A stretch of 64,000 nucleotides of DNA. Origin: Candidatus Latescibacterota bacterium (GTDB lineage Bacteria; Krumholzibacteriota; Krumholzibacteriia; WVZY01). The position numbers and the translations under genes are program-made. The stretch covers positions 1 to 64,000 of the forward strand of contig CAWBQK010000001.1 of assembly GCA_963791045.1 (NCBI GenBank), read 5' to 3'. The notes under the pieces were generated by a model that was not told where the DNA came from, made no database searches, and was given only the letters and a program-made list of their open reading frames with translations. Below are positions 14,856 to 45,741 of this stretch, piece by piece (within the stretch, counting starts at the first letter, position 1; each line of letters begins with the position of its first letter).

Positions 14856-15343
14856 ATGATATTCATCCTCCTACGTACACTCGCCTCTGCGCTGAGGTCC
14901 CGTCGTGCGCTGGCTCTCGAAATTCTCGCGCTCCGGCACCAACTCGATGTCCTTCAAAGGAATGCCAAACGGCCCAGGTTGTCCAACCGGGACCGCATCC
15001 TTTGGATCATCCTGTCGCGAGTCTGGACCGACTGGCGGCAGTCGTTAACGCTCGTCACGCCGGACACCGTCGTCCGGTGGCAAAGGCGGGGATTCCGGCT
15101 GTACTGGCGATGGAAGAGCCGTCCCCTTTGGCGTGGGCGGCCCCACATTCCGAAATCCGTTCGCCACCTGATTTGTCAAATGTCGAGTGCCAATCCTCTC
15201 TGGGGCGCGCCTCGGATTCATGGAGAACTCTTGAAGCTAGGGATCGACGTGAGTCAGGCCACCGTATCCAAGTATATGAAGAAACGGCGCAAACCTCCCT
15301 CACAAACCTGGCGTACCTTTCTCAAAAACCACTCCGCGGACAC
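14856..15343 (+). mobile_element. Truncated integrase-core (rve-type) IS transposase, N-terminal HTH part only
   Basis: LEILALRHQL, VTPDTVVRWQR, NPLWGAPRIHGELLKLG and SQTWRTFLKNH motifs; interrupted at 15344 by another IS end. A candidate left end, TGTCCCTACCAGAAA, lies at 14126. Confidence 0.8.
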
Positions 15344-15507
15344 TGACCTGCCCCCACTGATCGTACCACTTTTTGTGGTTCACCCCATATAATTGAGTCT
15401 CCCCTTCAAGCCGCTGCCTCGATGGCTGCCGGTGCCGGCGGACGATAGCCCAGCGAGCTATGGGGCCGCTTCCAGTTGTACTCTTTGCGCCACTGATGAA
15501 CAAGCAC
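15344..15507 (-). mobile_element. IS3-family right-end remnant (IS407-group-like)
   Basis: Terminal TGACCTGCCCCC; the minus strand encodes WRKEYNWKRPHSSLGYRPPAP...*. Confidence 0.7.
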
Positions 15508-20695: not shown

Positions 20696-21057
20696 CCCTC
20701 GTCCGACTCCGTCTCCAAGCCGGCGTGACTTTTTTTAAGAACGTCGTTTTTCAGGCTCAGGTCCGCAACAAGGTGCTTGAGGTGGGAGTTTTCTTTGCGA
20801 AGCCCCAGCACCTCGCCCGAGGTCGCCTCTCGTTGTGTATCGCCCATCAGCCGTTTCTTGCCAGCCTCCAGGAACGCCTTGCTCCAGCTGTAGTAGACAT
20901 TCGGACTGATCCCTTCGCGGCGACAAAGCTCGGCAATGCTCTCCTCGCCACGGAGCCCTTCCAATACAATACGGATCTTTTCTTCAGATGAATACTTGCG
21001 GCGGGTCTTGCGTTTGATATCTCGAACAACGCTCTCGGGGTCTGTCTTCCTGGCCAT
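20692..21057 (-). CDS. IS3-family transposase OrfA (HTH)
   Basis: YSSEEKIRIVLEGLRGEESIAELCRREGI. Confidence 0.9.
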   Translation of the reverse strand: MARKTDPESVVRDIKRKTRRKYSSEEKIRIVLEGLRGEESIAELCRREGISPNVYYSWSKAFLEAGKKRLMGDTQREATSGEVLGLRKENSHLKHLVADLSLKNDVLKKSHAGLETESDEG

Positions 21058-22483: not shown

Positions 22484-23257
22484 ATGTTCAGCTACTTCAA
22501 AAACAGACGCCGTAAAAAACTACGCGCAAAACCGATCCCGACCGAATGGCCGAAATGGATCGCAAACAACTTCGCGCTTTGGAACCGCATCCCCGAAGAC
22601 GAACGCAGCGAGATTCTCACCCGCATCCACGTCTTTCTGGCGGAAAAAAACTTCGAAGGGTGCAACGGACTCGAAGTCACCGACGAGATGCGCGTGACGA
22701 TCGCAGCCCAAGCGTGTCTCTTTCTTCTCCACCGCAAACACGACTACTATCCTTCGCTCCTCTCGATCCTGGTTTACCCGGAACCGTTTGTCACCGAAAT
22801 GGCGGAAATCGACGAGGCCGGAGTGGTGACAGAAGTCGCAAAAGACCAGGCGGGTCAAACATGGAGCCAGGGATCGCTTATCCTCGCCTGGGATGAGGTT
22901 GTCGAAGGCGGCCGGGACTTGAGCGACGGCTTCAATGTCGTCCTCCACGAATTCACCCATCAACTCGATCTCGAAAATGGCGACATCGACGGCGTACCCT
23001 ACCTCAATTCCAACGAAGCCTACGCGAAATGGATCGACACATTCGGCGCCGCACTCGACGCGTTCCGCGACGATCTCGACAACGGCAAAAGGACGTTCCT
23101 CGACCCCTACGGCGCCGAACACCCATGCGAATTCTTCGCCGTGGCGGTGGAAAGTTTCTTCGAGGAACCAAAAGATTTCAAAAGAGCGCACCCGGATCTA
23201 TACGAAGAATTAAGAGCCTATTTCCAGCAAGACCCTGCCCGGTGGCGCCCCGCTTAG
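22484..23257 (+). CDS. M90-family zinc peptidase (MtfA-like)
   Basis: VTIAAQAC, ILVYP, DGFNVVLHEFTHQLD and EFFAVAVESFFE motifs. Confidence 0.9.
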   Translation: MFSYFKNRRRKKLRAKPIPTEWPKWIANNFALWNRIPEDERSEILTRIHVFLAEKNFEGCNGLEVTDEMRVTIAAQACLFLLHRKHDYYPSLLSILVYPEPFVTEMAEIDEAGVVTEVAKDQAGQTWSQGSLILAWDEVVEGGRDLSDGFNVVLHEFTHQLDLENGDIDGVPYLNSNEAYAKWIDTFGAALDAFRDDLDNGKRTFLDPYGAEHPCEFFAVAVESFFEEPKDFKRAHPDLYEELRAYFQQDPARWRPA

Positions 23258-23371: not shown

Positions 23372-24568
23372 TTATTTGAGAACCGTCAGTCGTTTGACCT
23401 GAGTCTCCCCGCTTGTCGTCATACGGGTGAAATACACACCACTCGCGACGCCATCGGCATGCCAATCGAGCGTGTGCTCGCCGTACTCGACGGTCTGATT
23501 GACCAGCACTTCAATAAGACGGCCCGCCACATCATAAATGGCGAGCTGGACAAACTGATTCTCGGGCACAAAGAACGTAATCTTTGTCACCGGGTTGAAC
23601 GGGTTCGGATACGCGTCCTTCAACACCGGCTTGTCCGAGTACTCAAACGGCAGGTACTTGTTCCCCTTGATCAAAATACAGTCCTGCGCCTCGAGAGCGA
23701 CGCCGTCAAGGTAGTACCCGGTGAGCGTCAGTGTCCGCTCTCCATGGTACCCCGGGGCGATCGCCGCTGCGATGTCCTGGGAAATGAACTTCATCATGAT
23801 GTCGTCGAACCCGTCGGGACCCGCCGTCGTGCAGGCGCAGTCGGCGTCATCCACCACCGGTCCCGCGACGTCATTGATCTTCGGACCACCACCCTTCGAG
23901 AGCGGAGCCACACCCTCGAGCCGAAGTGACGAGAGATCCACGGTCGACACGTCGAATGTCGCGCTCCCAAGAAGCGCAACGGGCATCACACCGCCTTTCA
24001 TCGGCTTTTCGCCCTCGGCGAATTCGAAGAACTTGATGTTGAACGGGTTCGGGCAGGATCCAGGCTTGATATCCAAATCCATCTCGGGGCAGATGATTGA
24101 CGTTGAACCGCTCCCGTACACAATTTCGAAATCGGGAAACCGACACGCGCAAATAGTCCCGAACTCCGGGTGCGCGACCACGCTTATCGGCTGGTTTATC
24201 GTGGCACAGTCCGTACAGTTCCACAGAACGAGCACCCTCATAAACCGCACCTCAAAAAACCCATTGAGCGGCAGCGACCACCCAATCGATACTCCGCTGG
24301 ACGTGTTCCCTATCGTTACGGGGGGAACGTCAAGATCCGCCAACCAGGTCATGCTAGGCGGGTACTCAATCTTAAACTCCATCCCCGTAAAGAGAATGTT
24401 GAAATCCTCCGCAACAACATAAAGCGTATCGAGTCCCGGTCCGGGGCAGTCCATCGCGCGCATCGTCAACGCCTCGTCGAAGTACACCTTCACCATCTGG
24501 CTATTTGCCGGCGCCGCCACCAGGCACACCACGACCATGAGCGCAAATGCGCAAAAAGCAGGTCTCAT
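23372..24568 (-). CDS. Secreted protein: cohesin-like Cys-containing N-domain, DIKPGSCPNP module and FlgD/T9SS-like C-terminal domain
   Basis: Signal peptide; DIKPGSCPNPFN...CACTTAGPDGFDD; ends AYPNPFNP...ASGVYFTRM...LTVLK. Confidence 0.8.
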   Translation of the reverse strand: MRPAFCAFALMVVVCLVAAPANSQMVKVYFDEALTMRAMDCPGPGLDTLYVVAEDFNILFTGMEFKIEYPPSMTWLADLDVPPVTIGNTSSGVSIGWSLPLNGFFEVRFMRVLVLWNCTDCATINQPISVVAHPEFGTICACRFPDFEIVYGSGSTSIICPEMDLDIKPGSCPNPFNIKFFEFAEGEKPMKGGVMPVALLGSATFDVSTVDLSSLRLEGVAPLSKGGGPKINDVAGPVVDDADCACTTAGPDGFDDIMMKFISQDIAAAIAPGYHGERTLTLTGYYLDGVALEAQDCILIKGNKYLPFEYSDKPVLKDAYPNPFNPVTKITFFVPENQFVQLAIYDVAGRLIEVLVNQTVEYGEHTLDWHADGVASGVYFTRMTTSGETQVKRLTVLK

Positions 24569-24803
24569 TGCAGAACCTCCTTTGGTTCAAGACCTCGCTG
24601 GATAAACGTATGTCTGGGCAGAAGCTGCGGGTAGGATCAGCAATACTAACAATCACGTAGACAAGGGCTCCACACATAACCCGAATCTACGGAAAGAGAT
24701 AACACTCGAACTATCTCTGGCGTAAGTATAATCGGATTGCTGAAGCCCCGCGCTGCACATCTGTAATATAGCACCGCTTTTGAGGTGGTGCAAGGTGTAC
24801 GGT

Positions 24804-25853
24804 TTACTTCTTACCTAACATGTAGAGCTGCCAGATATCGCGGTCGGACATGTTGAAGATCGGGGCGCAGGCCATGAGTCCGGTCTTGCCGATGCTCTTC
24901 TCCAGGTACTTGAGTTCCTTGAATTTCTCCATGATTTCAGGCTCATCGGGAGGCTTAAAACCCGCCTCCCGCATGAGAAGAATCCCCTTGGCCCTGATAG
25001 AAAGCTCGAGATGAAGCCTGAGCATGCAAAGCATATCAACCACCACCTCGCCGGCAAAACGGGACTGCAGGGACTCGAAATAGCCCCCTATCCGCGATTC
25101 CGTCACGGTTCCGGTCTGGATGATCTCGAGCAGTTCCTGATCGGTGTCAAAACGAACGCCCAGCCACCGTCGCGTGGCGCGTTCGCTCGTTCGGAACACG
25201 ATCCACACAATCTGCGGCAGGACCACGAGGATCCCGATCGTCGATAAAACCGGCGAGAAGAAAAAGTGGTTGTAGGCGGAGTGCAAAAAATACGCAACGG
25301 TAAGACCAGGCAAGAACCCCGAGAGCCGCCCCCATGTCCCCCGTCCATCGGTCGCGAGCGAATACTGGTCGCACATCTGCTTGGAGATAATTCCCATAAT
25401 CCCGGTGACGCCACCGTGCATGACGGCGGTCCCAAACCCGCGAATGATCCACACAAGCAGATTGGTCGTCTCGAGGTACCGGAAATAATAGATGTTCTCG
25501 ACAATGGCAAAACCGGCGCCGATCGCAAAACCGTAGATCGCCGCATCCACCATAAAACCGACACGCCGCCGGCAAATCAAGATGACGAGAAGACTCGCCT
25601 TCAATGATTCCTCGACAAACGGCGCCACATACCGGGCAAAGATGGTCGCGTCGGTAAACACCGCGCCTATCAACCAGCTGTTGAGCCACAGGCAGGAAAA
25701 CGCCGCGACACACCCAAAGAGAATCGCGCCGAGAACCGCGCGAAACCGCATGAGCTTAAACGAGTCGACGGCGATCAGGACGAGCAGAAACACGACCACC
25801 GGCAAAAGGCTGGCCGCGAGACTAACAATGGAATGCAGAGTAGATGAAAGCAC
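24804..25853 (-). CDS. PrsW-family intramembrane protease
   Basis: Multi-pass membrane protein with APFVEESLK (EE), GAGFAIVEN, MHG and LHSAYN motifs. Confidence 0.9.
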   Translation of the reverse strand: MLSSTLHSIVSLAASLLPVVVFLLVLIAVDSFKLMRFRAVLGAILFGCVAAFSCLWLNSWLIGAVFTDATIFARYVAPFVEESLKASLLVILICRRRVGFMVDAAIYGFAIGAGFAIVENIYYFRYLETTNLLVWIIRGFGTAVMHGGVTGIMGIISKQMCDQYSLATDGRGTWGRLSGFLPGLTVAYFLHSAYNHFFFSPVLSTIGILVVLPQIVWIVFRTSERATRRWLGVRFDTDQELLEIIQTGTVTESRIGGYFESLQSRFAGEVVVDMLCMLRLHLELSIRAKGILLMREAGFKPPDEPEIMEKFKELKYLEKSIGKTGLMACAPIFNMSDRDIWQLYMLGKK

Positions 25854-25859
25854 CGATGT

Positions 25860-28811
25860 TTAAAGCAATTTCAAGGAAATCATGAACTCGTCCCGGTACT
25901 GATAGTTCTTCTCCCACGCACCGGCGTAACCGAATGACAATGTCGATGACATAGTCGAGAATATGACGAGTTTGAAATCAATTTGCAACCCCGCGTTTAT
26001 GAGCGTCCTCCGGATCGGCTCGTTGTGCCAGTTCGTCGAAAGCGCCGTGGAGAAAAGCCTCATATGCGCCCAGTTGCAGTAAAGCGACGGAATACCAAGA
26101 TGCTCGAACCGCACCGGCGGCAGCGCAAGCTCGACCATAAACTTGCCAAACGTCGTCCCGCCAACCTCGTTGATCTCGACGCCGGGATAACTGTAATAGT
26201 CTCTGTACCGTTTGACCTCCTGATAGTCCACCCAGTTGTTCCCAAACGCACCAAAGAAGTAGTTGGCGAACGGTTCGTAATCGTCGCCGTGCGACTTGCC
26301 GAGCGCCGGGCGAAACCACACCGACATGTGGTCGACGGGCGTCAGGAAGCCCCAGTCGAGCGTTCCCCAGTACCGAGGGATGTGGTGCTTGTTGACGTAG
26401 TTGTCGACCACATTGAGGGACCACTTGATCCCCTTCTCGGCCTCGACACCGCCAATCGTCCGGCCGAGACTCTTGTAATACAGCCCGGCGCCAAAGTTCA
26501 GATACTCCTTGAACGACGCTAGAACGTTCTGATAATCGGGCAGCGTTTCGAGGTCGCCGTACCAGGCGCCAAACAATTTGTAGTCAAGACTCTTCGGCCG
26601 CTCGCTCTTGAGCACGCCACTGTAACTCCCCCCGACGCCGTACCCTTTGCGCGCGTACTTGGTCGGACCAAAGAAATCATAAAAGTCCGCCGGGTTGAGC
26701 GCGCCCGAAAACTCCCACGGGTAGTGGCTGTATTTGAGCTTGATATGCGCCTGCTCGCTGTCCTCGATCATCCCGTTGGACGGTGTGTAGGCCGCCGTCA
26801 CATCGATTCCGTGCATCCACATCGGATCCATAAAGCTCGCGCGCACGCCCCAGGCCACATGCCCTTTGTAGTCTTCAACAATCGGATACCACCAACCCAG
26901 CCGCACACTTTTGAGCGAGGAATAATCCGTCCCCACCAGGGCCGTCGAATCAATCTTCACGGCGGACGGCGGTGGGAGCATCCAGTTCTCGAGCATCGGG
27001 TACTTGTCGAACACTGCCTGACCGAGGAAGCGCACCGCGCTCACGTCTTCGATCGGCTGGTTGGCGAGCATGACCGGCCGGAACCCTTCCGACGTATACC
27101 GAAGCGCTATCAGCGAATCCTCCGAAACGGGAACCGGACGGAAATACCCGTTCTCGTCATTCGTGATCCACTCCATTTTCTTGTTTTCGAAATCATACCG
27201 CGTGACATTGGACACACCGGTCGCATACGTCGTCCCGAACAGGTATTTGCCATCGGGCGAGTGCACGTAGTTCGCCGGAGAATAGTTCGAGAACTCGTGA
27301 AGAACCTCGAATGTCGTCTCTCCCACCATCATCTCGGCGATGCTGAGCTTGATGAGCCGCTGATGACCGTTCACTTCGAGAAGGGTACCCGTCAGCGACT
27401 CCCCATCGGGAGACACATCGATATCAAAGAGATCGCGCCCGAACGGCAGCGTCAGGAGAATAAACGCGTCCTGGTCGTAGGGGGGCGGAATCATCACCAC
27501 GCTGGAAAGCCCGTTGTGATGCCGGATTCCCCACAACGACCGGTCGACCCGGTTGATCGCGAGGTCACCGGTTCGGATGTCTTTCATCAGTTTTGTCGCC
27601 TTGTTCGACACCACGCTCACCGAATTAAGATCGCGCCAGTGATGACTGTTGTCCGTCGTGTAAAACAGTGTCTTTGAAGAATCGTCAAAGGCGAGCGACG
27701 CCACGTAGTAGAGCGCCGGTGTTGGAATGTCCACCACCTTGCGGCTCTCCCACGTATCGATATCGACAGCGACAATATGGGCCATCTCTCCCGGGTACAG
27801 CACGGCGCTGTAGAGCTCCCGGGTCTCCGGATCGAAATACATTCTCGACGCCGACCCCAGCGCGCCCCGCGACAGTTCGCGGTACGGCGTCACCGGGTAC
27901 TGCCGGACCGAATCGAGCGCGGCGGCCTGCCACTCGTGCTCGAACTCGACCCACCTGGCCCACTCATCGTCGAGAGGCGTCCCGTAAACCTTCTTAAACT
28001 GGGTGCCAAAGTGACGTTTGGACCCGTCGTTGCGGTTGACCCACTGGATCATCTTTTCGGGCCCGTACATATAGACGAGATACGAGACGAACCGCGTGCC
28101 GTACAGGTACGACATCTGGCCGACCTGCCAATCGATGGCCGATCCCTCGGACTCGAGCCCGACGATGTCGTAGAAAAATCCGTCCTCGGCGACCTTGGCC
28201 CGGAATACCATCTCGTCGTACCCACCCAACACACGTCCGTACCCGCCGGCCATCCACGTTTCCATGAAGACGGCCATCCCCTCGTGATACCACCGGGGCG
28301 CATACATTCTCGGCGATGTGAGATAACTGTACATCGCGGAGAGCGGCGCCTCCGGCTCGGTCATCACCTTGCCGGAAAAGAACCCCCGCCAGAACCTGTC
28401 GCGCGATGACGCCTGGTCCGACGCCACCACGTGCAGAAGCTCGTGGCTCATTACCCAGTTGAGGCGTTCGTTTGTCGGGGATGTTTCATACACCTGCTCG
28501 TAGGGCTCGATCCCGATGAGCAGGTAGTTGACGGGGAGCGAGGTGGCGCCGGCGTAACCATGATCGTTGAGATCCCGAAGGATTACGGTCACTTTTTCGC
28601 TCGGTTCCCAGTCAAACATTTCGATGTGAAAGGTAATCGAGTTTTCGAAACACCGCACGAGATGTGGAATCACATATTCGTGTTCCTCATCGTAATAGAT
28701 GAGGCGCATGTGATCGGTTTCGATTTGTTTGAATTTGAGCTGGGAATGGGCGGAGAGCGGAACCACCAGTACTAGAATGACAGCAATAAAGGCAAATATG
28801 TTCTTTTTCAT
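25860..28811 (-). CDS. Outer-membrane protein: gluzincin/MA-like HExxH domain, TolB-like propeller and C-terminal beta-barrel
   Basis: Signal peptide starting MKKNIF; SHELLH followed by WYHEGMAVFME; DVSPDG/HSPDG blades; amphipathic aromatic-rich strands at the C-terminus. Confidence 0.75.
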   Translation of the reverse strand: MKKNIFAFIAVILVLVVPLSAHSQLKFKQIETDHMRLIYYDEEHEYVIPHLVRCFENSITFHIEMFDWEPSEKVTVILRDLNDHGYAGATSLPVNYLLIGIEPYEQVYETSPTNERLNWVMSHELLHVVASDQASSRDRFWRGFFSGKVMTEPEAPLSAMYSYLTSPRMYAPRWYHEGMAVFMETWMAGGYGRVLGGYDEMVFRAKVAEDGFFYDIVGLESEGSAIDWQVGQMSYLYGTRFVSYLVYMYGPEKMIQWVNRNDGSKRHFGTQFKKVYGTPLDDEWARWVEFEHEWQAAALDSVRQYPVTPYRELSRGALGSASRMYFDPETRELYSAVLYPGEMAHIVAVDIDTWESRKVVDIPTPALYYVASLAFDDSSKTLFYTTDNSHHWRDLNSVSVVSNKATKLMKDIRTGDLAINRVDRSLWGIRHHNGLSSVVMIPPPYDQDAFILLTLPFGRDLFDIDVSPDGESLTGTLLEVNGHQRLIKLSIAEMMVGETTFEVLHEFSNYSPANYVHSPDGKYLFGTTYATGVSNVTRYDFENKKMEWITNDENGYFRPVPVSEDSLIALRYTSEGFRPVMLANQPIEDVSAVRFLGQAVFDKYPMLENWMLPPPSAVKIDSTALVGTDYSSLKSVRLGWWYPIVEDYKGHVAWGVRASFMDPMWMHGIDVTAAYTPSNGMIEDSEQAHIKLKYSHYPWEFSGALNPADFYDFFGPTKYARKGYGVGGSYSGVLKSERPKSLDYKLFGAWYGDLETLPDYQNVLASFKEYLNFGAGLYYKSLGRTIGGVEAEKGIKWSLNVVDNYVNKHHIPRYWGTLDWGFLTPVDHMSVWFRPALGKSHGDDYEPFANYFFGAFGNNWVDYQEVKRYRDYYSYPGVEINEVGGTTFGKFMVELALPPVRFEHLGIPSLYCNWAHMRLFSTALSTNWHNEPIRRTLINAGLQIDFKLVIFSTMSSTLSFGYAGAWEKNYQYRDEFMISLKLL

Positions 28812-28831
28812 GCTCTTTTGTGGGAAGGGGT

Positions 28832-28868
28832 AAAGGGGAAGCCGCGGAATAACCGCGGCATCCCCTTT
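28832..28868 (-). terminator. Strong intergenic hairpin after the repeat-protein gene
   Basis: AAAGGGGA-A-GCCGCGG-AATAA-CCGCGGC-A-TCCCCTTT. Confidence 0.65.
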
Positions 28869-28895
28869 TACGTCGCGCTGCACCTGCGCTGACTG

Positions 28896-30935
28896 CTACT
28901 GGGCGATCTTTACGCGCTGGAAAATCTCCGCGCGTTCGGTCGGCGTGAGGCGCTCGAAGAATTCGGCGCGCTGACTCACACTCATCGCCTGGAATCTCTC
29001 GGCGGACATATCATGACGCTGGTAGAACGCCGTGCGTTCGGCCGGCGTCAACCGCTCTACGAGATTGGAGCGCTCGACCACATTCATCCGCGCGTACGAT
29101 GACTCGTACACGTTCGCCTTCTGGAAGAACTCGGCGCGTTCGGAGAATGTCATACGCTCGAAGATCGAAAGCTTGCCCGCAAGGCTCATCGCCTCAAAGC
29201 GGCCGGCGGTAAAATTGAGTCTCTCAAAGAACTCGGCACGCTCAGCCGGGGTCAAACGGTTGTAAATGTTCGCACGCTCGGCGATGTCCATCTTGTTGTA
29301 GACGGACTGCGCCACGTTGAGGCGGTTGTGTATTTTCATCCGTTCGTACGGCGTAAGCTTTTCATAGATGTTCGCACGCGCTTTCATGTCCATCTTCGCA
29401 TACCGCTCGGAGGTGATGCTCTGACGGAGGAAGATGTCGGCACGCTCGGCCGGGGTCAGGCGCTCGAAAATATCAGCGCGCTCTGCCACGCTCATCTTGC
29501 CGATCCTCTCGCTCGTGAAGCTGATCCGCTGGGCAATCGAATACCGCTCGGCCGGGGTCAGACGCTCTACGAACTTGGCGCGTTCGGCGATATTGAGACC
29601 CTTGTAGCGCTCGGCGGTCATTTCGTAGCGCTGGAAGAACTCCATCCGCTCGGTCGGTGTGAGACGCTCGAACATCTCAACGCGCTGAGCCATATCCATC
29701 CGACCCGAGGCGGCCGAGAAGATATTGATCTTGTTGAAGATCTCCTGGCGCTGGGCCGGGGTGAGGCGCTCGACGAAGGCCGCCCGCTCGGCGACATTCA
29801 TGGTCGAGAACTTCGAACTCGTCATATTGAAGCGCTGGAAGAACTCGGCGCGCTCTGCCGGGGTCAAACGTTCAAAGATCTCGGCACGCTGCGCCTGGTT
29901 GAAATTCGCATACCGCTCCTGCGAGAAAGCGATACGATTGAAGATTTCCTGGCGCTCGGAGAACGTGAGGCGCTCGAAGAAGAGAGCGCGTTCGGCGATG
30001 TCCATCCGCTCGGCGGCGGCGCTGAAAACGTTGATCTTGTTGAAGATCTCCTGGCGCTGGGCCGGGGTCATACGCTCGGCAAAGCTCGCACGTTCGGCCA
30101 TGCTCATCGCGGAGAACTTCTCGCTTGTCATATTGAAGCGCTGGAAGATCTCGGCACGCTGGGCCGGGGTCAGACGCTCGAACATTTCGGCGCGGCCCGC
30201 CGCGTCCAACTTCGCATACCGCTCAGCCGAGAAGTTGAATTTCGAGAAGAAATTCGAACGTTCGGCCGGGGTCAGACGATTGAAGAACTCAGCACGGCCC
30301 GCCGCGTCCATTTTGTCAAAACGCGCGCTCGTGAAGTTGATCCGGCTGAACATCTCCTGCCGCTGCGCGGGGGTCAAACGCTCGACAAACTCGGCGCGCT
30401 GCGCGACACTCATCGCGGAGAACTTCTCGCTCGTCATGTTGAAGCGCTGAAAAAACTCTGCGCGCTCGGCCGGGGTCAGACGCTCAAAAATCTCAGCACG
30501 CTGCGCCTGGTTGAAGTTCGCGTAGCGTTCAGCCGTGAAGCTAAACTTCTCGAAGATCGCCTGGCGTTCCGCCGGAGTCATGCGCTCCACGAAGCTTGCA
30601 CGCTCGGCGATGGACATCTTGCCCCAGACGGCCTCGTACGGATTCATCCGCTGAAACATGTTGGTCCTCTGTACCGGGGTCAGACGCCCGAAGAGACCCG
30701 CCAGTTCCTCATCCGACATCCAGTCCGCCGTCTCAACAGCAGACTCGCCCGCCTTTTGGCCTTTGAGGTGAACATCCTCGGAGCTGAGCTGGTCCGCTCT
30801 GTACCTGTCGGCAGTACCGATGGCGCCCTCGAGTCCGTCTTCCTTCGGCGGTGTGGCGAAGAATGAGAAATAAGCGATCGCGACGATGGCGACGACCGCG
30901 AAAACACCGAGAAGACTTCTGTTTCGTCCACTCAT
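28896..30935 (-). CDS. Membrane-anchored protein of 17 full and 1 partial 34-aa helical repeats (ERLTPAER...)
   Basis: 82-aa leader with a TM helix, then gap-free 34-aa periodicity (82 + 17x34 + 19 = 679 aa). Confidence 0.9.
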   Translation of the reverse strand: MSGRNRSLLGVFAVVAIVAIAYFSFFATPPKEDGLEGAIGTADRYRADQLSSEDVHLKGQKAGESAVETADWMSDEELAGLFGRLTPVQRTNMFQRMNPYEAVWGKMSIAERASFVERMTPAERQAIFEKFSFTAERYANFNQAQRAEIFERLTPAERAEFFQRFNMTSEKFSAMSVAQRAEFVERLTPAQRQEMFSRINFTSARFDKMDAAGRAEFFNRLTPAERSNFFSKFNFSAERYAKLDAAGRAEMFERLTPAQRAEIFQRFNMTSEKFSAMSMAERASFAERMTPAQRQEIFNKINVFSAAAERMDIAERALFFERLTFSERQEIFNRIAFSQERYANFNQAQRAEIFERLTPAERAEFFQRFNMTSSKFSTMNVAERAAFVERLTPAQRQEIFNKINIFSAASGRMDMAQRVEMFERLTPTERMEFFQRYEMTAERYKGLNIAERAKFVERLTPAERYSIAQRISFTSERIGKMSVAERADIFERLTPAERADIFLRQSITSERYAKMDMKARANIYEKLTPYERMKIHNRLNVAQSVYNKMDIAERANIYNRLTPAERAEFFERLNFTAGRFEAMSLAGKLSIFERMTFSERAEFFQKANVYESSYARMNVVERSNLVERLTPAERTAFYQRHDMSAERFQAMSVSQRAEFFERLTPTERAEIFQRVKIAQ

Positions 30936-31000
30936 TTTCGACCCCCCTTTGGGTTTGGTGTGGGAAATAGCCTAAGCTTTGGTGAAACCGCTTCTAATAA

Positions 31001-31030
31001 AATTACCGGCCAACTCATGGAAAGTTGGTG
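31001..31030 (-). promoter_or_regulatory. Putative ECF sigma promoter upstream of the repeat-protein gene
   Basis: Minus strand CACCAACTTT-N13-GGTAATT; same motif and spacing as at 32392-32421. Confidence 0.65.
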
Positions 31031-31049
31031 GAAATGTCCACCTGGTTCC

Positions 31050-31835
31050 CTAGGGTTGTTCCGGCAAAATTTCGCGATCGAGAAGGACCTGGCCTCCCGA
31101 TATGACCTTGACCAGAAATGGGGCCGCAGGGTCTTCGTCGAGCTCGAACATGAACTCGTACGTGCCCTCGCCCTTGTTCCGGACTCGGATCTCGCGGTCT
31201 CCGATTGTGACCTGATTCGATGGATGTTCTGACAGTTTGCCTCCGGAAAAGCCCAACGCCTGCCCACCATATCCGAGGATGATTTCGACCTCATCTTCTG
31301 ACTGGATATCGAGATGCGTGAGCAAACGCGTCTTGACGCGTTGCAGAGACATGGCGCCGGTGGCTCCCGGCACACTGATGTTCAAAACGGGATTGGATTG
31401 ATCAACGCTGCTAAAATCGATTGTGCCACGTAACTGTGAAATGTCAAGGGGATCGTTGACGCCGGCTTCGTAAGCCAATAAATGATATCCAATTATGCCA
31501 ACAAACATCCCCATGACCGCCGCTGCGGCCACTTTCAATACGGGCCGCGGCGCGAAGAAATCGCGAATACGGTCCCATGCGGCGATCCGACCCGCCGGCT
31601 GAGGCGCCGGTGGTGTCGCCGCTTCGAGTGAGCGAAGAATGCGCTGTCTAAGCTCTGGAGGCGGGTCGATCTCTCCCACCTGACCGAAGAGCATCGTCAT
31701 CTGACGAAGCTGCTCAAAGTGCTTGAGCGCCTCGTCGTGCGATTCCAGATAGGAGTTTAGTTCCCTTCGATCATTGGGAGAGATCGAGTCGTCTATCTCG
31801 AGCCACATGAGTTCTTCTATTCTTCGTTCGATCAT
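31050..31835 (-). CDS. Single-pass anti-sigma factor
   Basis: N-terminal anti-sigma-like domain (EIDDSIS...YLESH...PPPELRQRIL), one TM helix, directly downstream of the ECF gene. Confidence 0.8.
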   Translation of the reverse strand: MIERRIEELMWLEIDDSISPNDRRELNSYLESHDEALKHFEQLRQMTMLFGQVGEIDPPPELRQRILRSLEAATPPAPQPAGRIAAWDRIRDFFAPRPVLKVAAAAVMGMFVGIIGYHLLAYEAGVNDPLDISQLRGTIDFSSVDQSNPVLNISVPGATGAMSLQRVKTRLLTHLDIQSEDEVEIILGYGGQALGFSGGKLSEHPSNQVTIGDREIRVRNKGEGTYEFMFELDEDPAAPFLVKVISGGQVLLDREILPEQP

Positions 31836-31849
31836 GGCACGATCCTTTG

Positions 31850-32371
31850 TTAACCCACGATGCCTTTACTCTGGAGAATTTCCTTGAGCTGTTGTCTCGC
31901 AGTAAAAAGACGTGATTTGACCGTTTTCTCGGGAACGTTAAGGACTTCCGCGATCTCCTTGTACGAGAAACCCTGGTAGTGCCTCAATGCGACAACGATC
32001 CGGTAATCCGGTTTAAGCATCTTGAGAGCCGCCTGCAGATGCCGTCCCAGCTCACGATCGCGGAACTTCTCCTCGGGGCTCTTCCCCGGAGCCGGAATAT
32101 TGCTGTCGAGCTCGTCAAACCGTTTCCGGTAGTTGACGATATTGAGGGACTCGTTGATGAGGATCCGGTACATCCAGGGGAAAAAGCGGCAGGAGGTATC
32201 GAAGGTGTGAAGCTTTTCATATGCCTTTCACAAAAGCGGACTGGGTGGCATCCATTGCATCTTCGGAGTCACCCAGTACTCTGTACGCGGCGTTAAAAAG
32301 CTTTTTTTCGTACCTTTCCACCAACACTTCGAATGCCTTCCGTTCCCCGCAAGGCAGGCTTGAACAATCAT
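31850..32371 (-). CDS. ECF RNA polymerase sigma factor (SigW-like), frameshifted near 32345 and 32225
   Basis: Reconstructed AFEVLVERYEKKLFNAAYRVLGDSEDAMDATQSAFVKAY...FFPWMYRILIN...GFSYKEIAEVLNVPEKTVKSRLFTAR. Start position is approximate. Confidence 0.85.
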
Positions 32372-32391
32372 CTCATCACGGTCAGTTGCCT

Positions 32392-32421
32392 AAATACCGT
32401 GGATGAGTCGAAAAGTTGGTG
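32392..32421 (-). promoter_or_regulatory. Putative autoregulatory ECF promoter
   Basis: Minus strand CACCAACTTT-N13-GGTATTT immediately upstream of the sigma gene. Confidence 0.65.
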
Positions 32422-32543
32422 AGTATTTTCGAAGAAGTTTGCCGTTTTGTGGGTCCCACGCCTGACCCCCGGAGACAGCCCGAAAGGTTCGCCCCGGCCA
32501 GTCGGCCGGAGGGTGTCGCGGTCGATTTAGAAATGGGTTATGT

Positions 32544-32829
32544 CTATTCGATTTCGAAGATATGGTCAAATCCTGCCATCCGGAAAATCTCCCGTATATG
32601 CCGGTTCATATTCATGAGTTTGAGACTGCTGCCCGTCTCACCAAGCCGTTTCTGGACGTCCAAGCAGCACCCCGAGCCCGGCGCTCGAAATGTATTCCAG
32701 ATCGGCAAAATCGACACGCAGGACTGCCGACACCTTGTTCATGGCCTCACGCGCGACATCGTACCTGCGATGCATCGAGCCTGCCGACCAGTTCGAATCC
32801 GGTCCTCGTGTTTCTCGCACCTCGAACAT
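32544..32829 (-). CDS. STAS-domain anti-sigma antagonist, frameshifted
   Basis: LVGRLDA, VDFADLEYISSAGLGVLL and IREIFRMAGFDHIFEIE* spread over different frames. Confidence 0.8.
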
Positions 32830-32830
32830 G

Positions 32831-33239
32831 TTATCGCCCCAGCTCCTTCATGATCGTGACTTGCATATGCCGGTCCTTGTACTCGTAGGTGATTTTGTCC
32901 ACGATCGACTTGACGAGATGTAATCCAAGCCCCCCGACCTTCCGTTCCTCGATCGGCTGGTCCGTCGTCCACATCGGGAATCCGCGATGGATCAAAAGGG
33001 TCGACATCCTCATCCACCAACTTGATGACGTAGCTGGCCGTCACTCGGGATCCATCTGGATCCCGATGGGATGTCCGGCCCCAGTGTTATGCCGGACCAT
33101 ATTGGTAAACAGTTCTTCCATGGCAAGGTTGATCGAATACGCCAGCGATTCATCGATCTTGCTGGTCCGTCAAGAATTGACCGATATATTCGAAAATCCC
33201 ATCAAGAGATTTGAAATCTCGTTGGAATGTTTTTTCCAT
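32831..33239 (-). CDS. RsbW-like HATPase anti-sigma kinase, frameshifted
   Basis: INLAMEELFTNMVRH, DVDPFDP and ERKVGGLGLHLVKSIVD spread over different frames. Confidence 0.8.
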
Positions 33240-33379
33240 TTCCACTGCACCACCTTGGAGCCATCATATACGCAGACCTGGACGCCGCAAGTGTCAATTA
33301 CACGCCATCCTCGCGGATAACCCGCAGCCCAGTCACTGGACGGGCTAAAAGCCCGGGAAAAGAACGGAAACCACGAGGG

Positions 33380-35197
33380 CTATTCTCTTGTATCGGAGTC
33401 TGAAGATTCGGTACTGAGAGGAACAAGGACATCACGGGGGAGCTGCACCGGTTGCTCGGATGTCCGGGAGATCAACACACAATTGACTGCCTCGAAGGAA
33501 GTTCCTGATTTCACCGATCCTGACAGCGTCCAATTCCGGCGTTCATTTTCCAGAACGGTCGATGGATCGGCCAACACATCGGAAAGTCTGAACTGGAGGA
33601 CGAGGTCCTGAAAACCGTCACCGCCCTCGTTCGAACAATCACAATCCCCGCCTGTACCCGGCCGGCTCACATCGCGGTACTGCACCCTCGTCGGGGCGGC
33701 ATCTTCAAGGTAAAGCGACGTCACATCGATGTCGCTGACATCGAAGTCTTCCCCGCCGACAACGGCAACCGTCACCAGGTCCTGAATACCCAATTCGACG
33801 GCGTTCGGACACACACCGGGGGCGATGTCAAAAAACACATCGAGCGTCACATCGACCCATTCGTGTATCACGACGTTCGAACCCGCCGTGGCGCCGTCAT
33901 CATGATCGTCACCAATCACCGCAATGAGAAGGTCGCGCCCCGCGTTATTGCCGCGGTACAAAAACACGGCGTGGCCGGTCGAGTCGGTTCGAGCCTTCGA
34001 CACGACGCCGGAGTGCGGCCCCGATACGATCTTGAGAGCCACATCGACGTCGACTACGGGGACGCCATGATCCTGGACGACGGCCTTGATTTCACACGGC
34101 GAACCGACCTGGGTCTGCCCCGCCGATGCCGACAAAACGAACCCGTCTGGAGCAAGACCGTCGGCCACCGGCGCGGCTGCCACCACACCACGAGCACCGC
34201 GGCCGCCAATGAACGAGGCAAAGAACAGATTTTCCTCGTTGGATTGTGTCGCTGTATTTATTGAAATCCTGGAATCGCCCGGCGAAACGAACGGCCGCAG
34301 GTCATAATACTCATCATCGCTCGCCATGTTTGTGGGCACCGCGTACGCATCGACCGGATTTGCCGGAGAATCGTCGATGCCGCCGATACTTAGCAATCCG
34401 CCTGACGCGGGCGATCCGTCGTCGGGCCCTCCGGCGGACGTCGTCAAACGCTCACCGTTGACCTGGATGATCGTGTACTGATCGGTCCCACCGCTCGACT
34501 GCAGGCTGAAAGTGATTCCAACCCCGAGTTCATAACGCATCGATGCCAGATCCGCGGGAACCGGGCTGGAAAGATTGATTTTGAAGCTATCTTGCCTCGC
34601 CGACTGGGCGCCAAAATAGAGCGCCACATCGTTGTCCGGATAGGCGTCGGGGTCATCGAAAACCACGGCCAGAATAACCCCGTCGATGAGGTCGCTCTGG
34701 TCCTCCCACACATCGACGGGCACGCGCCCGGCGGGCGCGGCGTCGATCTCGCCCTTGATGAGCCGTGTCACGTCGGCCACGGCATTCCATGATCCGACGG
34801 CATTTGGAACCGTACGATCCCAGGCGACATGGTGACCGTCGATACGTATCTCACCGTCCGTGATTTGATGGGAAAAATTACCCGACGCGGCCGCCGCCAA
34901 AAAAACCTTGCGTACTACGCCGCGGGCCGGCTTGTCGACCTCAATGGTGCCAAACGACAGTTCGGTGCCTATGCCGTTTACCGACACGCTCAAAGGGCCT
35001 GTCGCGGCAAAGATCGTCTCCAGGCTCTGGGAAAAACGAACGGTCTGGTTCGACCGATCGGATGCGCCGGGTGGTTTTGTCGGCTGGGTGCGCTTCTTCG
35101 GTTTATATTTTACGCCGTTAGCAGGGGTTACAAACGCGGCGCAAACGAGGACCAGAACAAGGGAGCGCACCACGCAACGAAAGAGGGTTCGTATCAT
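33380..35197 (-). CDS. Secreted multidomain protein with an Ig-like (Big-1-like) domain and a C-terminal DIAPGVCPN module
   Basis: GAGGAG RBS and signal peptide; VSGPHSG...TDSTGHAVFLY; FDIAPGVCPN...CDCSNEGGDGFQD. Confidence 0.75.
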   Translation of the reverse strand: MIRTLFRCVVRSLVLVLVCAAFVTPANGVKYKPKKRTQPTKPPGASDRSNQTVRFSQSLETIFAATGPLSVSVNGIGTELSFGTIEVDKPARGVVRKVFLAAAASGNFSHQITDGEIRIDGHHVAWDRTVPNAVGSWNAVADVTRLIKGEIDAAPAGRVPVDVWEDQSDLIDGVILAVVFDDPDAYPDNDVALYFGAQSARQDSFKINLSSPVPADLASMRYELGVGITFSLQSSGGTDQYTIIQVNGERLTTSAGGPDDGSPASGGLLSIGGIDDSPANPVDAYAVPTNMASDDEYYDLRPFVSPGDSRISINTATQSNEENLFFASFIGGRGARGVVAAAPVADGLAPDGFVLSASAGQTQVGSPCEIKAVVQDHGVPVVDVDVALKIVSGPHSGVVSKARTDSTGHAVFLYRGNNAGRDLLIAVIGDDHDDGATAGSNVVIHEWVDVTLDVFFDIAPGVCPNAVELGIQDLVTVAVVGGEDFDVSDIDVTSLYLEDAAPTRVQYRDVSRPGTGGDCDCSNEGGDGFQDLVLQFRLSDVLADPSTVLENERRNWTLSGSVKSGTSFEAVNCVLISRTSEQPVQLPRDVLVPLSTESSDSDTRE

Positions 35198-35320
35198 GGT
35201 TCTCCTCAAGGGGCAATTGCCTTTCTTTAAGTAAATTATAATGTTACAGCGCTTGTAAGTCAAATTCAAACCCCGGAGGCCGGTCGTGGGTGGGTGGGAT
35301 CGGCTCCCAACAAAAAGCAC

Positions 35321-35361
35321 AAAGCCCCTCCGGTCAATCAAGGCCGGAGGGGCTCTTTTTC
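35321..35361. terminator. Intrinsic terminator
   Basis: AAAGCCCCTCCGGTC...GGCCGGAGGGGCTCTTTTT hairpin. Confidence 0.7.
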
Positions 35362-35412
35362 AATCCAATCAGTTATGTCGTCAACCGCCGGCGGCGGTCA
35401 CTCGAACCCTCG

Positions 35413-36972
35413 CTAGAGGGAGAAATCCTTTACCAGGTACAACTCGAGGAAATTCGAGTCGTATTCGTCGATCGCCATCTGGAAATCCCTGTAATCGTAA
35501 CGCGCATACTTCGCCTCGACGCCAAAGCCCCGTGCGAACATATATTCGAGCCCGATATCGAAGCTGTATTTCTCGATATTGAGGTCGCGCTTGCTTCTAT
35601 AATAGACGCCGCCGAGAGACAGTGTCGCCCCGTGGTACGCCGCCGGGATTACCCGCGCCGTAATCACGTAGTCGGAGAACGCCGCACTGCCGTCGAGATT
35701 CTCGTATTTTCCGAGATAGTACGCGTAGCTCAAAACCAACCCGCCAAACCGCTCTTTGTCGATGCTGTACTCCGCCGAGAACATATCGTAGTCGACGCGC
35801 GTGCCAAGCTCTTCCCGCTTGCGCTCGCGCCCCTGATAGAGCGCCGACAGCGAACCGAATCGATCGAGACGGTATTTTGCCGTCAGCTGATAGCGAGTGT
35901 AGTCCTCGTCACCGATGAGAGTCGACGATTTATCATCCTTGTCGTTGCGCATCCCGCCCAACGCGCGGAGGAACAAACGGCCATCGTGATTGAACCATGC
36001 GTTGAAAAGAAAACCGTTAGATTTGCGTCTATCGATTTTGTCGCTCGTCCAGCGGTTGTCGTACCCAACCCTTAGACCGCCCCTCTTGTTCCAGCTCTTG
36101 GTCAGAGAAACCGTGTTGAACACGTTCTCGGTTCCACGGTCGGTGATGCTGTGCTTGGTATAACCATACACGAACCGATAATCGAGAAGGAATTGTTCGG
36201 GCAAATAAAGCTTCGCCGCGCCCCACGGCAAATGGGTGTAAAGCTTGACATCCGAATCGTTCACCTCATCTTCACGATAACTGTAGCCACCCGAGACCAC
36301 GAGCTGCTCAAATCTTGGCGTCGGAATGGTCCCTCTCAGACGAACCTCGTCGCCCTTGCGATCTCTGTCGTCGTGGAGGTAATCCTGGAAACCGTAAGAC
36401 TTGTACTCGAGCAGCAGAGTTCCGCCGTAGTGAAACGACTGGGCGCCGATAGTGAGCGCGCCGCGTTTGAAATCGGACGCCACAACGGTCGGATCTGTGG
36501 GATCGTATTCGGTATAGGTTTCGCCCTTTTTGTCGATGTGGTCAAACCCAGCATACAACTTGAGCTGCTCCACCGGCGTAATCGACAGGCGACCGCCCCA
36601 CGACGTTCTCCTGGTGGCGTTTCGTCCCTCGGACTCGTAAATTCTCCGGTACTTGTTGTCGTACAACGAGAACGAAAAGCTTTTTGCCTTCGAGAAAGAC
36701 ATTCGCGAATTCCTGTTCTCGCGCGCAACGTTCGTCAGATCCGCGGTGACCCGCAGACCGTTATCCATCGTGTAGAAGAAATTCTGAAGCGAGAACGCCG
36801 TTCCCTCGTAAAGGTTGTGTGTTTCCTGGAAAACGGCACGGTTCCCGTTCTCGTCCAGGAAGTTATAACCAAGTTTTGCACGGCCGCTGCCCTCGTCTGC
36901 GAGGACCTGTGCTGCGGCCGCGAGAAAAAGCGCCATCGCTATAAAAAACACAGTGTATTTTTTCCGCCGCAT
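35413..36972 (-). CDS. Outer-membrane beta-barrel, MtrB/PioB-like porin partner
   Basis: Signal peptide and Tyr-rich amphipathic strands; lies directly downstream of the multiheme cytochrome. Confidence 0.7.
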   Translation of the reverse strand: MRRKKYTVFFIAMALFLAAAAQVLADEGSGRAKLGYNFLDENGNRAVFQETHNLYEGTAFSLQNFFYTMDNGLRVTADLTNVARENRNSRMSFSKAKSFSFSLYDNKYRRIYESEGRNATRRTSWGGRLSITPVEQLKLYAGFDHIDKKGETYTEYDPTDPTVVASDFKRGALTIGAQSFHYGGTLLLEYKSYGFQDYLHDDRDRKGDEVRLRGTIPTPRFEQLVVSGGYSYREDEVNDSDVKLYTHLPWGAAKLYLPEQFLLDYRFVYGYTKHSITDRGTENVFNTVSLTKSWNKRGGLRVGYDNRWTSDKIDRRKSNGFLFNAWFNHDGRLFLRALGGMRNDKDDKSSTLIGDEDYTRYQLTAKYRLDRFGSLSALYQGRERKREELGTRVDYDMFSAEYSIDKERFGGLVLSYAYYLGKYENLDGSAAFSDYVITARVIPAAYHGATLSLGGVYYRSKRDLNIEKYSFDIGLEYMFARGFGVEAKYARYDYRDFQMAIDEYDSNFLELYLVKDFSL

Positions 36973-36983
36973 AGTAAACCTCG

Positions 36984-37931
36984 CTACCTGACTAGGGTGT
37001 GACAGCCGCTCTGATAACAATCCAGCCCGTACTTCGCGGGAAGATCCGGATCGAGATAGAAGTTACTGTTGAACGATCCATGCGTATCAACGTGACAGTA
37101 TTCGCATGAGACGTTCGCGTATGCGCCGCCGTGCGCTGTATTGTGCTTTGCGGGGTAATGACACTGGGTACAAATTTTGTTTCCGGGCTGCCTGAGGAGC
37201 CGGTCTTGCTCGCTGCCGTGCGGTTTGTGACAGTCGAGGCAGCCGGTGCCGCTCTGAGCGGAGTAGGCGTTTACCGCCTGGTGTTCGTAAAGGAACGGGC
37301 CTCCCTGCTCGGGGTGACAGTCGCGGCAGTGCTGCTGCAGATCGTACATGACCGCCTGGTCATCGCGTTTGACGAAGCTGTGGCAGTCCAGGCACGTCAA
37401 TGCTTTCTGCAGAACTGGATGATTCGAACGCCTGCGAAACTGATCGCGGGTTGACGCGTGGCACTTGAAACAGAACTCCATGTCACGATCGAGAAGGAGC
37501 TTTGCATCGTTTGTGTGCACTTTGTGGCACGACATACAGCTCAGTTCGGCGCTCGAGTGTGCGTCATAACCGTAATTGTCGAGATCGCTGTGACCCTCGT
37601 GGCACTGTGTACAAATATCTATCGCGCTCTTGCCCGTATAATCCGCCGGGTTGGTAATGGTCTCCTTCGAGGGATCGTCCAGGTGCCCCGCGGCGCCCTG
37701 GTGGCAAATCGCGCACGCCACGACCGTTCCCGGGTCCTTGATCTCGGAACTCAGGCGATGGGCCGTCGCCTTGAGCGAGAGGTTGTAATCTTCGTGACAG
37801 TCGAGACAGGTCTCGTCATCAACGTCCACATCCTTTGTCAGGGTCGCAGACGGAAATGCAAAAACAATGATGACGAGCAACGCGAAGCCCAATCCCAACA
37901 GCCACCGGCTGTTTGATGTCCGCATTCTCAC
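36984..37931 (-). CDS. DmsE/MtrA-family decaheme c-type cytochrome
   Basis: Ten CxxCH motifs plus a terminal CYQSGCH; GPFLYEH and CHKPHGS motifs. Confidence 0.9.
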   Translation of the reverse strand: MRMRTSNSRWLLGLGFALLVIIVFAFPSATLTKDVDVDDETCLDCHEDYNLSLKATAHRLSSEIKDPGTVVACAICHQGAAGHLDDPSKETITNPADYTGKSAIDICTQCHEGHSDLDNYGYDAHSSAELSCMSCHKVHTNDAKLLLDRDMEFCFKCHASTRDQFRRRSNHPVLQKALTCLDCHSFVKRDDQAVMYDLQQHCRDCHPEQGGPFLYEHQAVNAYSAQSGTGCLDCHKPHGSEQDRLLRQPGNKICTQCHYPAKHNTAHGGAYANVSCEYCHVDTHGSFNSNFYLDPDLPAKYGLDCYQSGCHTLVR

Positions 37932-40829: not shown

Positions 40830-40843
40830 GCGCCGGACACTCC

Positions 40844-45725: not shown

Positions 45726-45741
45726 GAATCTCAGTAGTCAA

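Follow-up and report, generated by a model that had tools for sequence, protein, structure and literature searches.

The 64,000-nucleotide stretch analysed in this study (the window) comprises positions 1 to 64,000 of contig CAWBQK010000001.1 from a Candidatus Latescibacterota bacterium (assembly GCA_963791045.1), and the subject here is a cassette of seven co-oriented genes on its minus strand (24804-33239). The open reading frame (ORF) listing and profile searches give the transcription order as RsbW-like kinase, STAS protein, extracytoplasmic function (ECF) sigma factor, single-pass anti-sigma factor, a repeat protein here called REP, a large peptidase-propeller-barrel protein here called BIG, and a PrsW-family intramembrane protease, separated in that order by 1, 172, 14, 114, 84, and 6 nt (Table 1). 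The first-pass annotation of the window had named seven co-oriented genes of these same kinds, and all of them were found. A scan of 24500-33500 for sigma-70-type promoters and for terminators gave nothing above shuffled sequence.

The first-pass annotation had also treated the seven genes as a single unit, and the gene-neighbourhood comparison bears this out. In a scan of one genome per species, at least 594 of 185,579 species-level genomes carry the cassette (as judged by BIG matches), and the 80 best of these matches make up the set of loci compared here. The window proteins, and hidden Markov models (HMMs) built from the loci, were used to search the ORFs in all six frames of each locus. 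The loci come from Latescibacterota, Krumholzibacteriia, Eisenbacteria, Ignavibacteria, other Bacteroidota, several Acidobacteriota classes, Balneolales, Rhodothermaceae, Calditrichota, Zixibacteria, KSB1, and Marinimicrobia, about ten phyla in all, and cultivated carriers include Gracilimonas, Ignavibacterium, Rhodohalobacter, and Paludibaculum. Of the 71 loci with at least 1200 bp of downstream sequence, 69 have PrsW as the gene immediately following BIG on the same strand; in the other two (L073, L080) PrsW is upstream. An ORF with a membrane helix and the motif described below lies just upstream of BIG in 61 of the 64 loci with at least 1500 bp upstream; the remaining three are L015, where there is a masked N-run, L019, which has an inserted gene, and L080. 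Where at least 4500 bp were available upstream (48 loci), the sigma factor is found in 43, the STAS gene in 42 (48 anywhere in the locus), and the kinase in 39 (43 anywhere). Gene calls in the loci followed a simple longest-ORF procedure, so that a number of starts are misplaced and certain small genes escaped detection, which accounts for the kinase counts being lower than the STAS counts. Pfam searches with 35 ORFs upstream of sigma genes identified those of about 135 aa as HATPase_c_2 and those of about 94 aa as STAS, leaving three without a match. Among the 46 loci with both flanks, 33 have the complete set of five partners in position. The gene order is thus repeated in dozens of genomes, across phyla of the Fibrobacterota-Chlorobiota-Bacteroidota (FCB) group and Acidobacteriota, and the seven genes are a conserved unit with an arrangement far outside what chance would produce.

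Between the anti-sigma factor and BIG lies a gene whose product differs widely in length from locus to locus (about 220-830 aa). In the window, REP has one N-terminal membrane helix, the motif GAIGTADRYRADQ, and 17.5 repeats of exactly 34 aa with no indels, which start at residue 84; the juxtamembrane segment has the form PPKEDGLEGAIGTADRYRADQLSSEDVHL. The repeat unit differs by lineage, having 34 residues in the window and 9-12 in many other loci. The start of the protein is constant: a membrane helix, (Y/F)PP, then about 27 residues with the pattern (E/D)D..G(T/A)IG..(K/R)(Y/H)(R/Q)..Q(I/M)...DV.L. Among 52 motif sequences of the REP type, the glycine is present in all 52 and is followed by T in 43, A in 8, and S in 1, and the positions that were not part of the selection pattern are also conserved (D in 52/52, V or I in 51/52, L in 47/52). 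Out of 1.84 billion cluster representatives, a profile of the module matches 1559 at E<=1e-3, 645 of them at E<=1e-10, so the leader motif picked out in the first-pass annotation is a genuine and widespread signature. The motif is not always N-terminal; in 21 of the best 150 library matches it lies at about residue 100. Pfam matches of REP to MgtE_N (E 2.8e-32), DUF3106, and others were rejected as indications of function and are read as likeness between helical repeats rather than as homology. The MgtE_N-like matches suggest that the array of 17.5 two-helix units forms an elongated helical solenoid. Two repeat proteins from loci of the Aminicenantes type match the STI1/HOP DP profile (E 2e-21) and a CT0912-like C-terminal domain profile, which hints that some repeat variants resemble chaperone-type client-binding helices. 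Two further repeat genes contain masked or unidentified stretches, seen as runs of X in the translation; REP-family repeats evidently disrupt or confuse assemblies, and published gene lengths may be unreliable.

The window anti-sigma factor consists of an N-terminal anti-sigma domain and a membrane helix, with the residues RGTI about 18 aa past the helix; its periplasmic domain measures about 130 aa. Alignment of 23 separately encoded anti-sigma factors shows that G-(T/S/A)-(I/M/L) is kept about 15-20 residues past the helix. The G occurs in every one of the 23, and the next residue is T in 17 of them, S in three, A in two, and V in one. The anti-sigma N-domain, helix, motif, and repeats form one ORF in 17 of 54 classifiable loci (Balneolales, Rhodothermaceae, several Ignavibacteria and Bacteroidota) and are separate in the other 37. 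No anti-sigma domain was seen in 11 further loci; for at least four of them (L001, L003, L008, L012) the contig stops short of the module or within about 450 bp of it. Given the fusions, the repeats belong to the input side and form the extracytoplasmic part of the anti-sigma factor, which contradicts the earlier suggestion that the repeat protein is the exported output of the sigma factor. By the same gene-fusion argument, REP and the anti-sigma factor probably act together at the inner membrane with the same topology. Cleavage might additionally release the repeat domain for some further purpose. FoxR-type anti-sigma factors cleave themselves at a Gly-Thr bond; this was considered for REP and set aside because 8 of the 52 sequences, including that of the window, have alanine at the position.

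BIG was modelled with AlphaFold2 (m456eb9fba578) from 64 aligned relatives, at a predicted local distance difference test score (pLDDT) of 89.6 and a predicted template modelling score (pTM) of 0.88. The model has a signal helix, a helical HExxH domain (about residues 28-302), a beta-propeller (about 310-583), and 16 long antiparallel strands (637-982) that are rich in Gly, Tyr, and Trp and alternate in hydrophobicity. HExxH occupies residues 123-127, and H123, E124, and H127 are invariant in the 64 sequences, together with several glutamates further along that include E177 and E200. Profile matches are weak. Peptidase_MA_2 scores 22.5 bits on the window BIG, compared to a cut-off of 32.4, and among 15 BIG members searched, Peptidase_MA_2 matches six at E<=0.01, Omp85_2 four (best E 4.8e-4), and PD40 four. 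The N-domain is a candidate member of the gluzincin (Peptidase MA) clan, for which HExxH with a downstream Glu ligand is characteristic. A Foldseek search of the PDB with the whole model returned propellers only, with no match to the whole architecture and none that places the peptidase or the barrel; the propeller resembles TolB chains (E 2e-9 to 1e-8, target-normalised TM about 0.5), and the middle domain of the model is a TolB-like six-bladed propeller fold. A PDB profile search gave two marginal propeller matches, none better than E 0.03, and no Omp85 relative at E<=1. BIG is therefore not assigned to the Omp85 superfamily: like BamA, TamA, and TpsB it has 16 long C-terminal strands, but the N-terminal part is an HExxH peptidase with a TolB-like propeller, without POTRA domains. 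The model suggests a periplasmic metallopeptidase with a gating propeller, held by a 16-strand barrel in what is probably the outer membrane, and the HExxH/propeller/barrel protein described from the sequence alone thus has a predicted counterpart in a secreted peptidase-propeller with a C-terminal barrel. More than 1400 relatives of BIG at >50% identity occur in many phyla. The closest (P0002-P0005) are 71-77% identical, and Latescibacterota records are 65% identical. Identity across phyla is 44-55%, with 129 columns invariant in 15 sequences.

The Pfam match of the window PrsW to PF13367 covers residues 38-217. E81, E82, K85, E119, N120, H146, H191, and N195 are invariant in 48 aligned sequences, and we take them to represent the catalytic motifs of PrsW, which are EExxK/R, a second Glu, a His, and HxxxN. 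Judging from these residues and from the HExxH motif, PrsW and BIG both look catalytically active, as their initial assignment as proteases implies. The NCBIfam PrsW equivalog NF033739 scores 29.7 bits on the window protein, compared to a cut-off of 225; because this threshold is missed, the protein is placed in a subfamily distinct from the Bacillus PrsW equivalog, with an extra C-terminal domain. The positive-inside rule predicts about seven membrane helices with the N-terminus outside. In this topology the catalytic residues would lie where the helices meet the periplasm, and residues of about 222-349 would be cytoplasmic. The latter form a domain of about 125 aa that is conserved through the family (48 sequences), matches no Pfam family, and has an unconvincing best Atlas look-alike (score 0.78).

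The sigma factor gene of the window does not form one uninterrupted reading frame (its two shifts are treated below). The downstream portion matches Sigma70_r4_2 (E 1.7e-18) and, over the C-terminal 125 aa, TIGR02937 (71.7 bits compared to 42.9), while the region 2 fragment lies in a different frame and aligns to the orthologues; sigma2 and sigma4 are the only domains, as in ECF (group 4) sigma factors. The kinase and STAS orthologues score 50-75 bits on PF13581 and 35-60 bits on STAS, respectively, while the window fragments alone fall below the Pfam threshold. The kinases keep EExFTN (the N-box) and GGLG, and the STAS proteins keep Y(I/V)SS(A/M)GL, which is present in the window copy; its conserved Ser is presumably the position that is phosphorylated in RsbV and SpoIIAA. 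By these motifs, the two genes encode a kinase and STAS protein of the RsbW/RsbV type. A PP2C phosphatase adjoins the cassette or is fused to the kinase in eight other loci, as GAF-PP2C, GAF-PP2C-kinase, or Cache-HAMP-PP2C (Table 1), and a phosphatase and kinase in one polypeptide are unusual for a partner switch. Candidate targets of the switch are the sigma factor, as for RsbW and sigmaB, or the cytoplasmic C-domain of PrsW. Six loci of the Ignavibacteria type have a Ser/Thr protein kinase with TPR repeats upstream on the same strand, sometimes with small ORFs between, which may be a lineage-specific extra input.

Taken together, these observations lead us to consider, with modest confidence, that the cassette is a widespread seven-gene envelope-signalling module built around regulated proteolysis of an ECF anti-sigma factor. 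The repeat domain is best read as a periplasmic sensor or substrate, and the cytoplasmic partner switch as a second input. The ECF sigma factor would be held at the inner membrane by the anti-sigma N-domain, and a long helical repeat array, belonging either to the anti-sigma factor itself or to its split-off partner REP, would reach into the periplasm behind the conserved juxtamembrane segment of about 27 aa, G(T/A)IG..KYR..Q(I/M)...DV.L. BIG, whose barrel would sit in the outer membrane with the HExxH peptidase and the gating propeller facing the periplasm, would attack or trim the array on envelope perturbation. PrsW, whose active site would face the periplasm from the inner membrane, would make a site-1-type cut near the motif, by analogy with PrsW acting on RsiW, and a site-2 protease encoded elsewhere would then free the sigma factor. 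In Bacillus, trimming comes after the PrsW cut. The RsbW/STAS pair would contribute a cytoplasmic input, in some lineages together with a GAF- or Cache-PP2C phosphatase that is adjacent or fused to the kinase.

Several points weigh against this scheme, each step of which is read from sequence, predicted structure, and gene order. No PP2C phosphatase was found among the scanned ORFs (11 + 40) of the 64-kb window, nor was a site-2 protease (RasP/RseP) found there, and the window PrsW misses the equivalog threshold as noted above. Linkage as such is no feature of the known system, since B. subtilis prsW is unlinked to sigW. When the regions upstream of 19 kinase genes were searched for a common two-block promoter motif, the results were no better than with shuffled sequence. 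The weak Omp85_2 matches in four of 15 BIG members would suit a translocation role. The eight indels in the regulator genes, lying amid intact genes of 1603, 1299, and 983 aa, could be real inactivation. Finally, four loci with long flanks (L063, L064, L079, L080) have BIG and PrsW with an adjoining STAS gene, kinase gene, or both, but no ECF sigma factor within 10 kb, and the motif protein is retained in the first three. A sigma factor may thus be dispensable for the core. The STAS and kinase copies in these four loci match at E 1e-11 to 1e-17, compared to about 1e-35 to 1e-55 elsewhere, and may belong to an unrelated or different partner switch.

A more elaborate form of the scheme, in which the partner switch licenses PrsW through its C-domain, is speculative and quite unlikely as it stands. 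The sigma factor would then be freed only when envelope and cytoplasmic signals coincide, and a periplasm-spanning repeat array would read the outer membrane through an Omp85-like barrel carrying a metallopeptidase. If true, this would be the first partner switch aimed at a protease rather than a sigma factor, and BIG would represent a new class of outer-membrane protease. Complex prediction for the kinase and STAS protein of L045 with the PrsW C-domain gave a median of 0.55, and a control with the kinase replaced scored higher (0.66), a result that counts neither for nor against such a contact.

Among other explanations, the persistence of REP, BIG, and PrsW in the sigma-less loci L063, L064, and L079 is what would be expected if the cassette served export and processing, the second option offered by the first-pass annotation. 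REP would be cargo, PrsW would cut its anchor at the motif, the BIG barrel would pass it through or into the outer membrane, and the peptidase would mature it; the sigma factor, anti-sigma factor, and switch would only regulate expression, and in the fused forms one cut would free both cargo and sigma factor. The 16-strand barrel and the weak Omp85_2 matches fit such a role, the repeats differ in period and sequence between lineages, as is often the case in surface proteins, and PrsW-dependent release has been proposed for polymorphic toxins (PMC3482391). However, in 17 loci the repeats are fused to the anti-sigma N-domain and are thus part of the regulator, REP has no two-partner secretion (TPS) type or type IX secretion system (T9SS) sorting signal in Pfam or NCBIfam, and the periplasmic part of BIG is a peptidase and propeller with no POTRA domain. 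The Omp85_2 matches are also below any curated threshold, and the PDB profile search gave no Omp85 relative at E<=1. Export is therefore considered unlikely. The unusual conservation of BIG for a signalling protein, with the identity across phyla and the invariant columns given above, could instead mean that two unrelated neighbours have been taken for one system, BIG and PrsW serving housekeeping envelope quality control in a role like that of BepA or DegP and the kinase, STAS protein, sigma factor, and anti-sigma factor forming an ordinary ECF unit. The sigma unit is indeed missing from some loci, but 33 of 46 loci (about ten phyla) keep the same order, 17 loci have the connecting gene REP fused to the anti-sigma gene, and the intergenic gaps in the window are short (6, 84, 114, 14, 172, and 1 nt), and we regard such a chance pairing as very improbable.

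The state of the regulator genes in the window raises a different question, that of whether the locus is decaying here. As the first-pass annotation correctly remarked, the sigma, STAS, and kinase genes are frameshifted. Frameshift-aware alignment of intact orthologues to the window DNA, together with HMM mapping, places eight shifts of +/-1 within 1.4 kb: three in the kinase gene, three in the STAS gene, and two in the sigma gene (Table 1). If they are real, these three genes are pseudogenes and only the four downstream genes are functional. The concentration of the shifts in 1.4 kb, set against unbroken reading frames in the four downstream genes and in other long genes of the window, would agree with this, and the insertion sequence (IS) element and the multiply shifted TonB-dependent receptor gene nearby suit a genome that is accumulating lesions. 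On the other hand, the shifted genes contain no in-frame stops or large deletions, and the read-through products are full length. Their identity is 68/132 (52%) for the kinase compared to L002, 51/94 (54%) for the STAS protein compared to L045, and 88/163 (54%) for the sigma factor compared to L006, while BIG and PrsW, both intact, show 49-56% identity to their counterparts in the same loci; the fragments, at 49-54%, are thus no more diverged than intact neighbours. The conserved Ser motif of STAS, the kinase N-box, and sigma region 4 are all intact, there appears to be no sign of relaxed selection beyond the indels themselves, and alternating +1 and +2 shifts that restore the frame within a small gene are typical of local consensus errors. 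Because the read-through products are full length and their identity is like that of the intact neighbours, the shifts are probably local assembly or consensus errors, and decay of the locus is considered a distinctly less probable explanation. The broken TonB-dependent receptor gene, 8 kb away, indicates that local indel clusters are not peculiar to the regulators; receptor sequence there alternates with Arg-rich nonsense, with in-frame stops at 41646 and 41208 and another frame taking over from about 40780. GGWCC sites and homopolymers were considered as a cause of the shifts and rejected: GGWCC occurs at 4.2/kb in broken genes compared to 1.6/kb in intact genes, and 11 sites in intact genes have no shift.

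The signalling module proposed here resembles several characterised systems without coinciding with any of them. It shares with the B. subtilis sigmaW-RsiW-PrsW-RasP pathway an ECF sigma factor, an adjoining single-pass anti-sigma factor, and a PrsW-family protease with the same catalytic motifs, and presumably the common logic of an extracytoplasmic site-1 cut followed by intramembrane cleavage. It differs in that prsW is linked to the sigma unit, in the cytoplasmic domain of about 125 aa and the missed equivalog threshold, in the diderm host, in the addition of BIG, the motif/repeat module, and the RsbW/STAS pair, and in having no RasP/RseP in the window. The E. coli sigmaE-RseA-DegS-RseP and FecA-FecR-FecI pathways relay the state of the outer membrane across the periplasm of a diderm to proteolysis of an inner-membrane anti-sigma factor, as is proposed for the cassette. 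The cassette has no DegS-type PDZ protease, and Pfam and NCBIfam searches found no FecR domain or TonB-dependent transducer in the seven proteins; because these defining domains are absent, it is of neither the Fec nor the DegS type, and its outer-membrane partner is itself a putative metallopeptidase. With RsbU/RsbV/RsbW-sigmaB it shares the HATPase_c_2 kinase, a STAS protein with the conserved Ser, and, in eight loci, the adjoining or fused PP2C. Bordetella BtrS, an ECF sigma factor with BtrU, BtrV, and BtrW, is a further system of this kind. Compared to RsbW/sigmaB and BtrS, the cassette sigma factor is an ECF with its own membrane anti-sigma factor, and the window lacks PP2C.

ECF sigma factors are the main envelope-stress sensors of bacteria, and to our knowledge their activation is understood in few model organisms, none of which belongs to the FCB group or Acidobacteriota. 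PrsW, the ECF/anti-sigma pair, and the RsbW/STAS switch are already known separately and are joined here, while BIG and the motif/repeat module belong to no curated family and are two uncharacterised families, adding more than 1400 relatives and 1559 cluster representatives, respectively. The fusion of anti-sigma factor and repeats provides a concrete and testable substrate hypothesis. The cassette appears to be undescribed: the literature search found no description of the gene combination or of BIG, in agreement with the view taken when the locus was first annotated. In the main text of the ECF re-classification paper (PMC7826278), STAS, HATPase, RsbW, and Ignavibacteria are not mentioned; its supplementary tables may list the group and its gene context. 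The paper of Zhang et al. 2012 (PMC3482391) contains a sentence on the Bacillus PrsW system and proposes that PrsW fused to intracellular signalling domains acts as a signal-gated peptidase. As in the cassette, those fusions combine a PrsW core with a cytoplasmic addition proposed to gate cleavage, although the C-domain of the cassette PrsW matches no Pfam family or convincing Atlas cluster.

Table 1. Positions of the cassette genes, of other features of the window, and of genes in the compared loci (window coordinates, or locus number with coordinates in that locus).
Feature	Position	Strand	Remarks
RsbW-like HATPase_c_2 kinase gene	32831-33239	-	PF13581-type; three frame shifts, near 33164, 33048, 32963
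STAS (RsbV-like) gene	32544-32829	-	YISSAGLG serine motif kept; three frame shifts, near 32795-32816, 32758, 32655
ECF sigma factor gene	31850-32371	-	Sigma70_r4_2, TIGR02937; two frame shifts, near 32337, 32225
Single-pass anti-sigma factor, 261 aa	31050-31835	-	NCBIfam antisigma NF052375, E 7e-10, below cut-off
Repeat protein REP, 679 aa	28896-30935	-	Membrane helix, motif, and 34-aa repeats
BIG, 983 aa from Met at 28811 (ORF open to 28883)	25860-28811	-	AlphaFold2, alignment, Foldseek
PrsW-family intramembrane protease, 349 aa	24804-25853	-	Pfam PF13367, 77 bits compared to cut-off 23.5, E 1.9e-21
TonB-dependent receptor gene, broken	39560-43019	-	Plug domain at 41646-43019
IS element	19667-21057	-	HTH_Tnp_1 transposase ORF 20692-21057; rve integrase ORF 19667-20695
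HTH_32 fragment	14832-15392	+	Separate from the IS element
Peptidase_M90 (MtfA-like) gene	22484-23257	+	E 1.9e-86
Multihaem cytochrome and two neighbours	33380-37931	-	Cytochrome at 36984-37931
Type IX sorting-domain and Peptidase_C25 proteins	4107-6593 (+), 6693-10592 (-), 11948-13438 (-), 23372-24568 (-), 45731-50542 (-)		
GAF-PP2C adjacent to cassette	L036, L040, L051, L071		
GAF-PP2C-kinase fusion	L032:4702-7119, L035:5177-6760, L038:5158-6888		Thermoanaerobaculia
Cache-HAMP-PP2C	L063		
Ser/Thr kinase-TPR gene	L007:107-3052, L015:250-3237, L027:4328-6955, L028:605-3175, L054:4679-6877, L078:29-2248		
Repeat proteins with STI1/HOP DP and CT0912-like matches	L073:7562-9796, L065:2674-5013		Aminicenantes-type
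Repeat genes with masked or unidentified stretches	L015:7848-8540, L024:8291-9223		

A well-conserved Peptidase_M90 gene lies on the opposite strand about 1.5 kb past PrsW, and its adjacency to the cassette is not kept in the other loci. Directly upstream of the cassette is a multihaem cytochrome with paired CXXCH motifs and MtrC-like matches, beside proteins of 535 aa and 653 aa that have no Pfam or NCBIfam match; together the three may be a candidate module of the porin-cytochrome type. As would suit an FCB-group organism, the window also encodes a 1603-aa gingipain-like Peptidase_C25 protein with FG-GAP repeats and four proteins that carry C-terminal sorting domains for type IX secretion.

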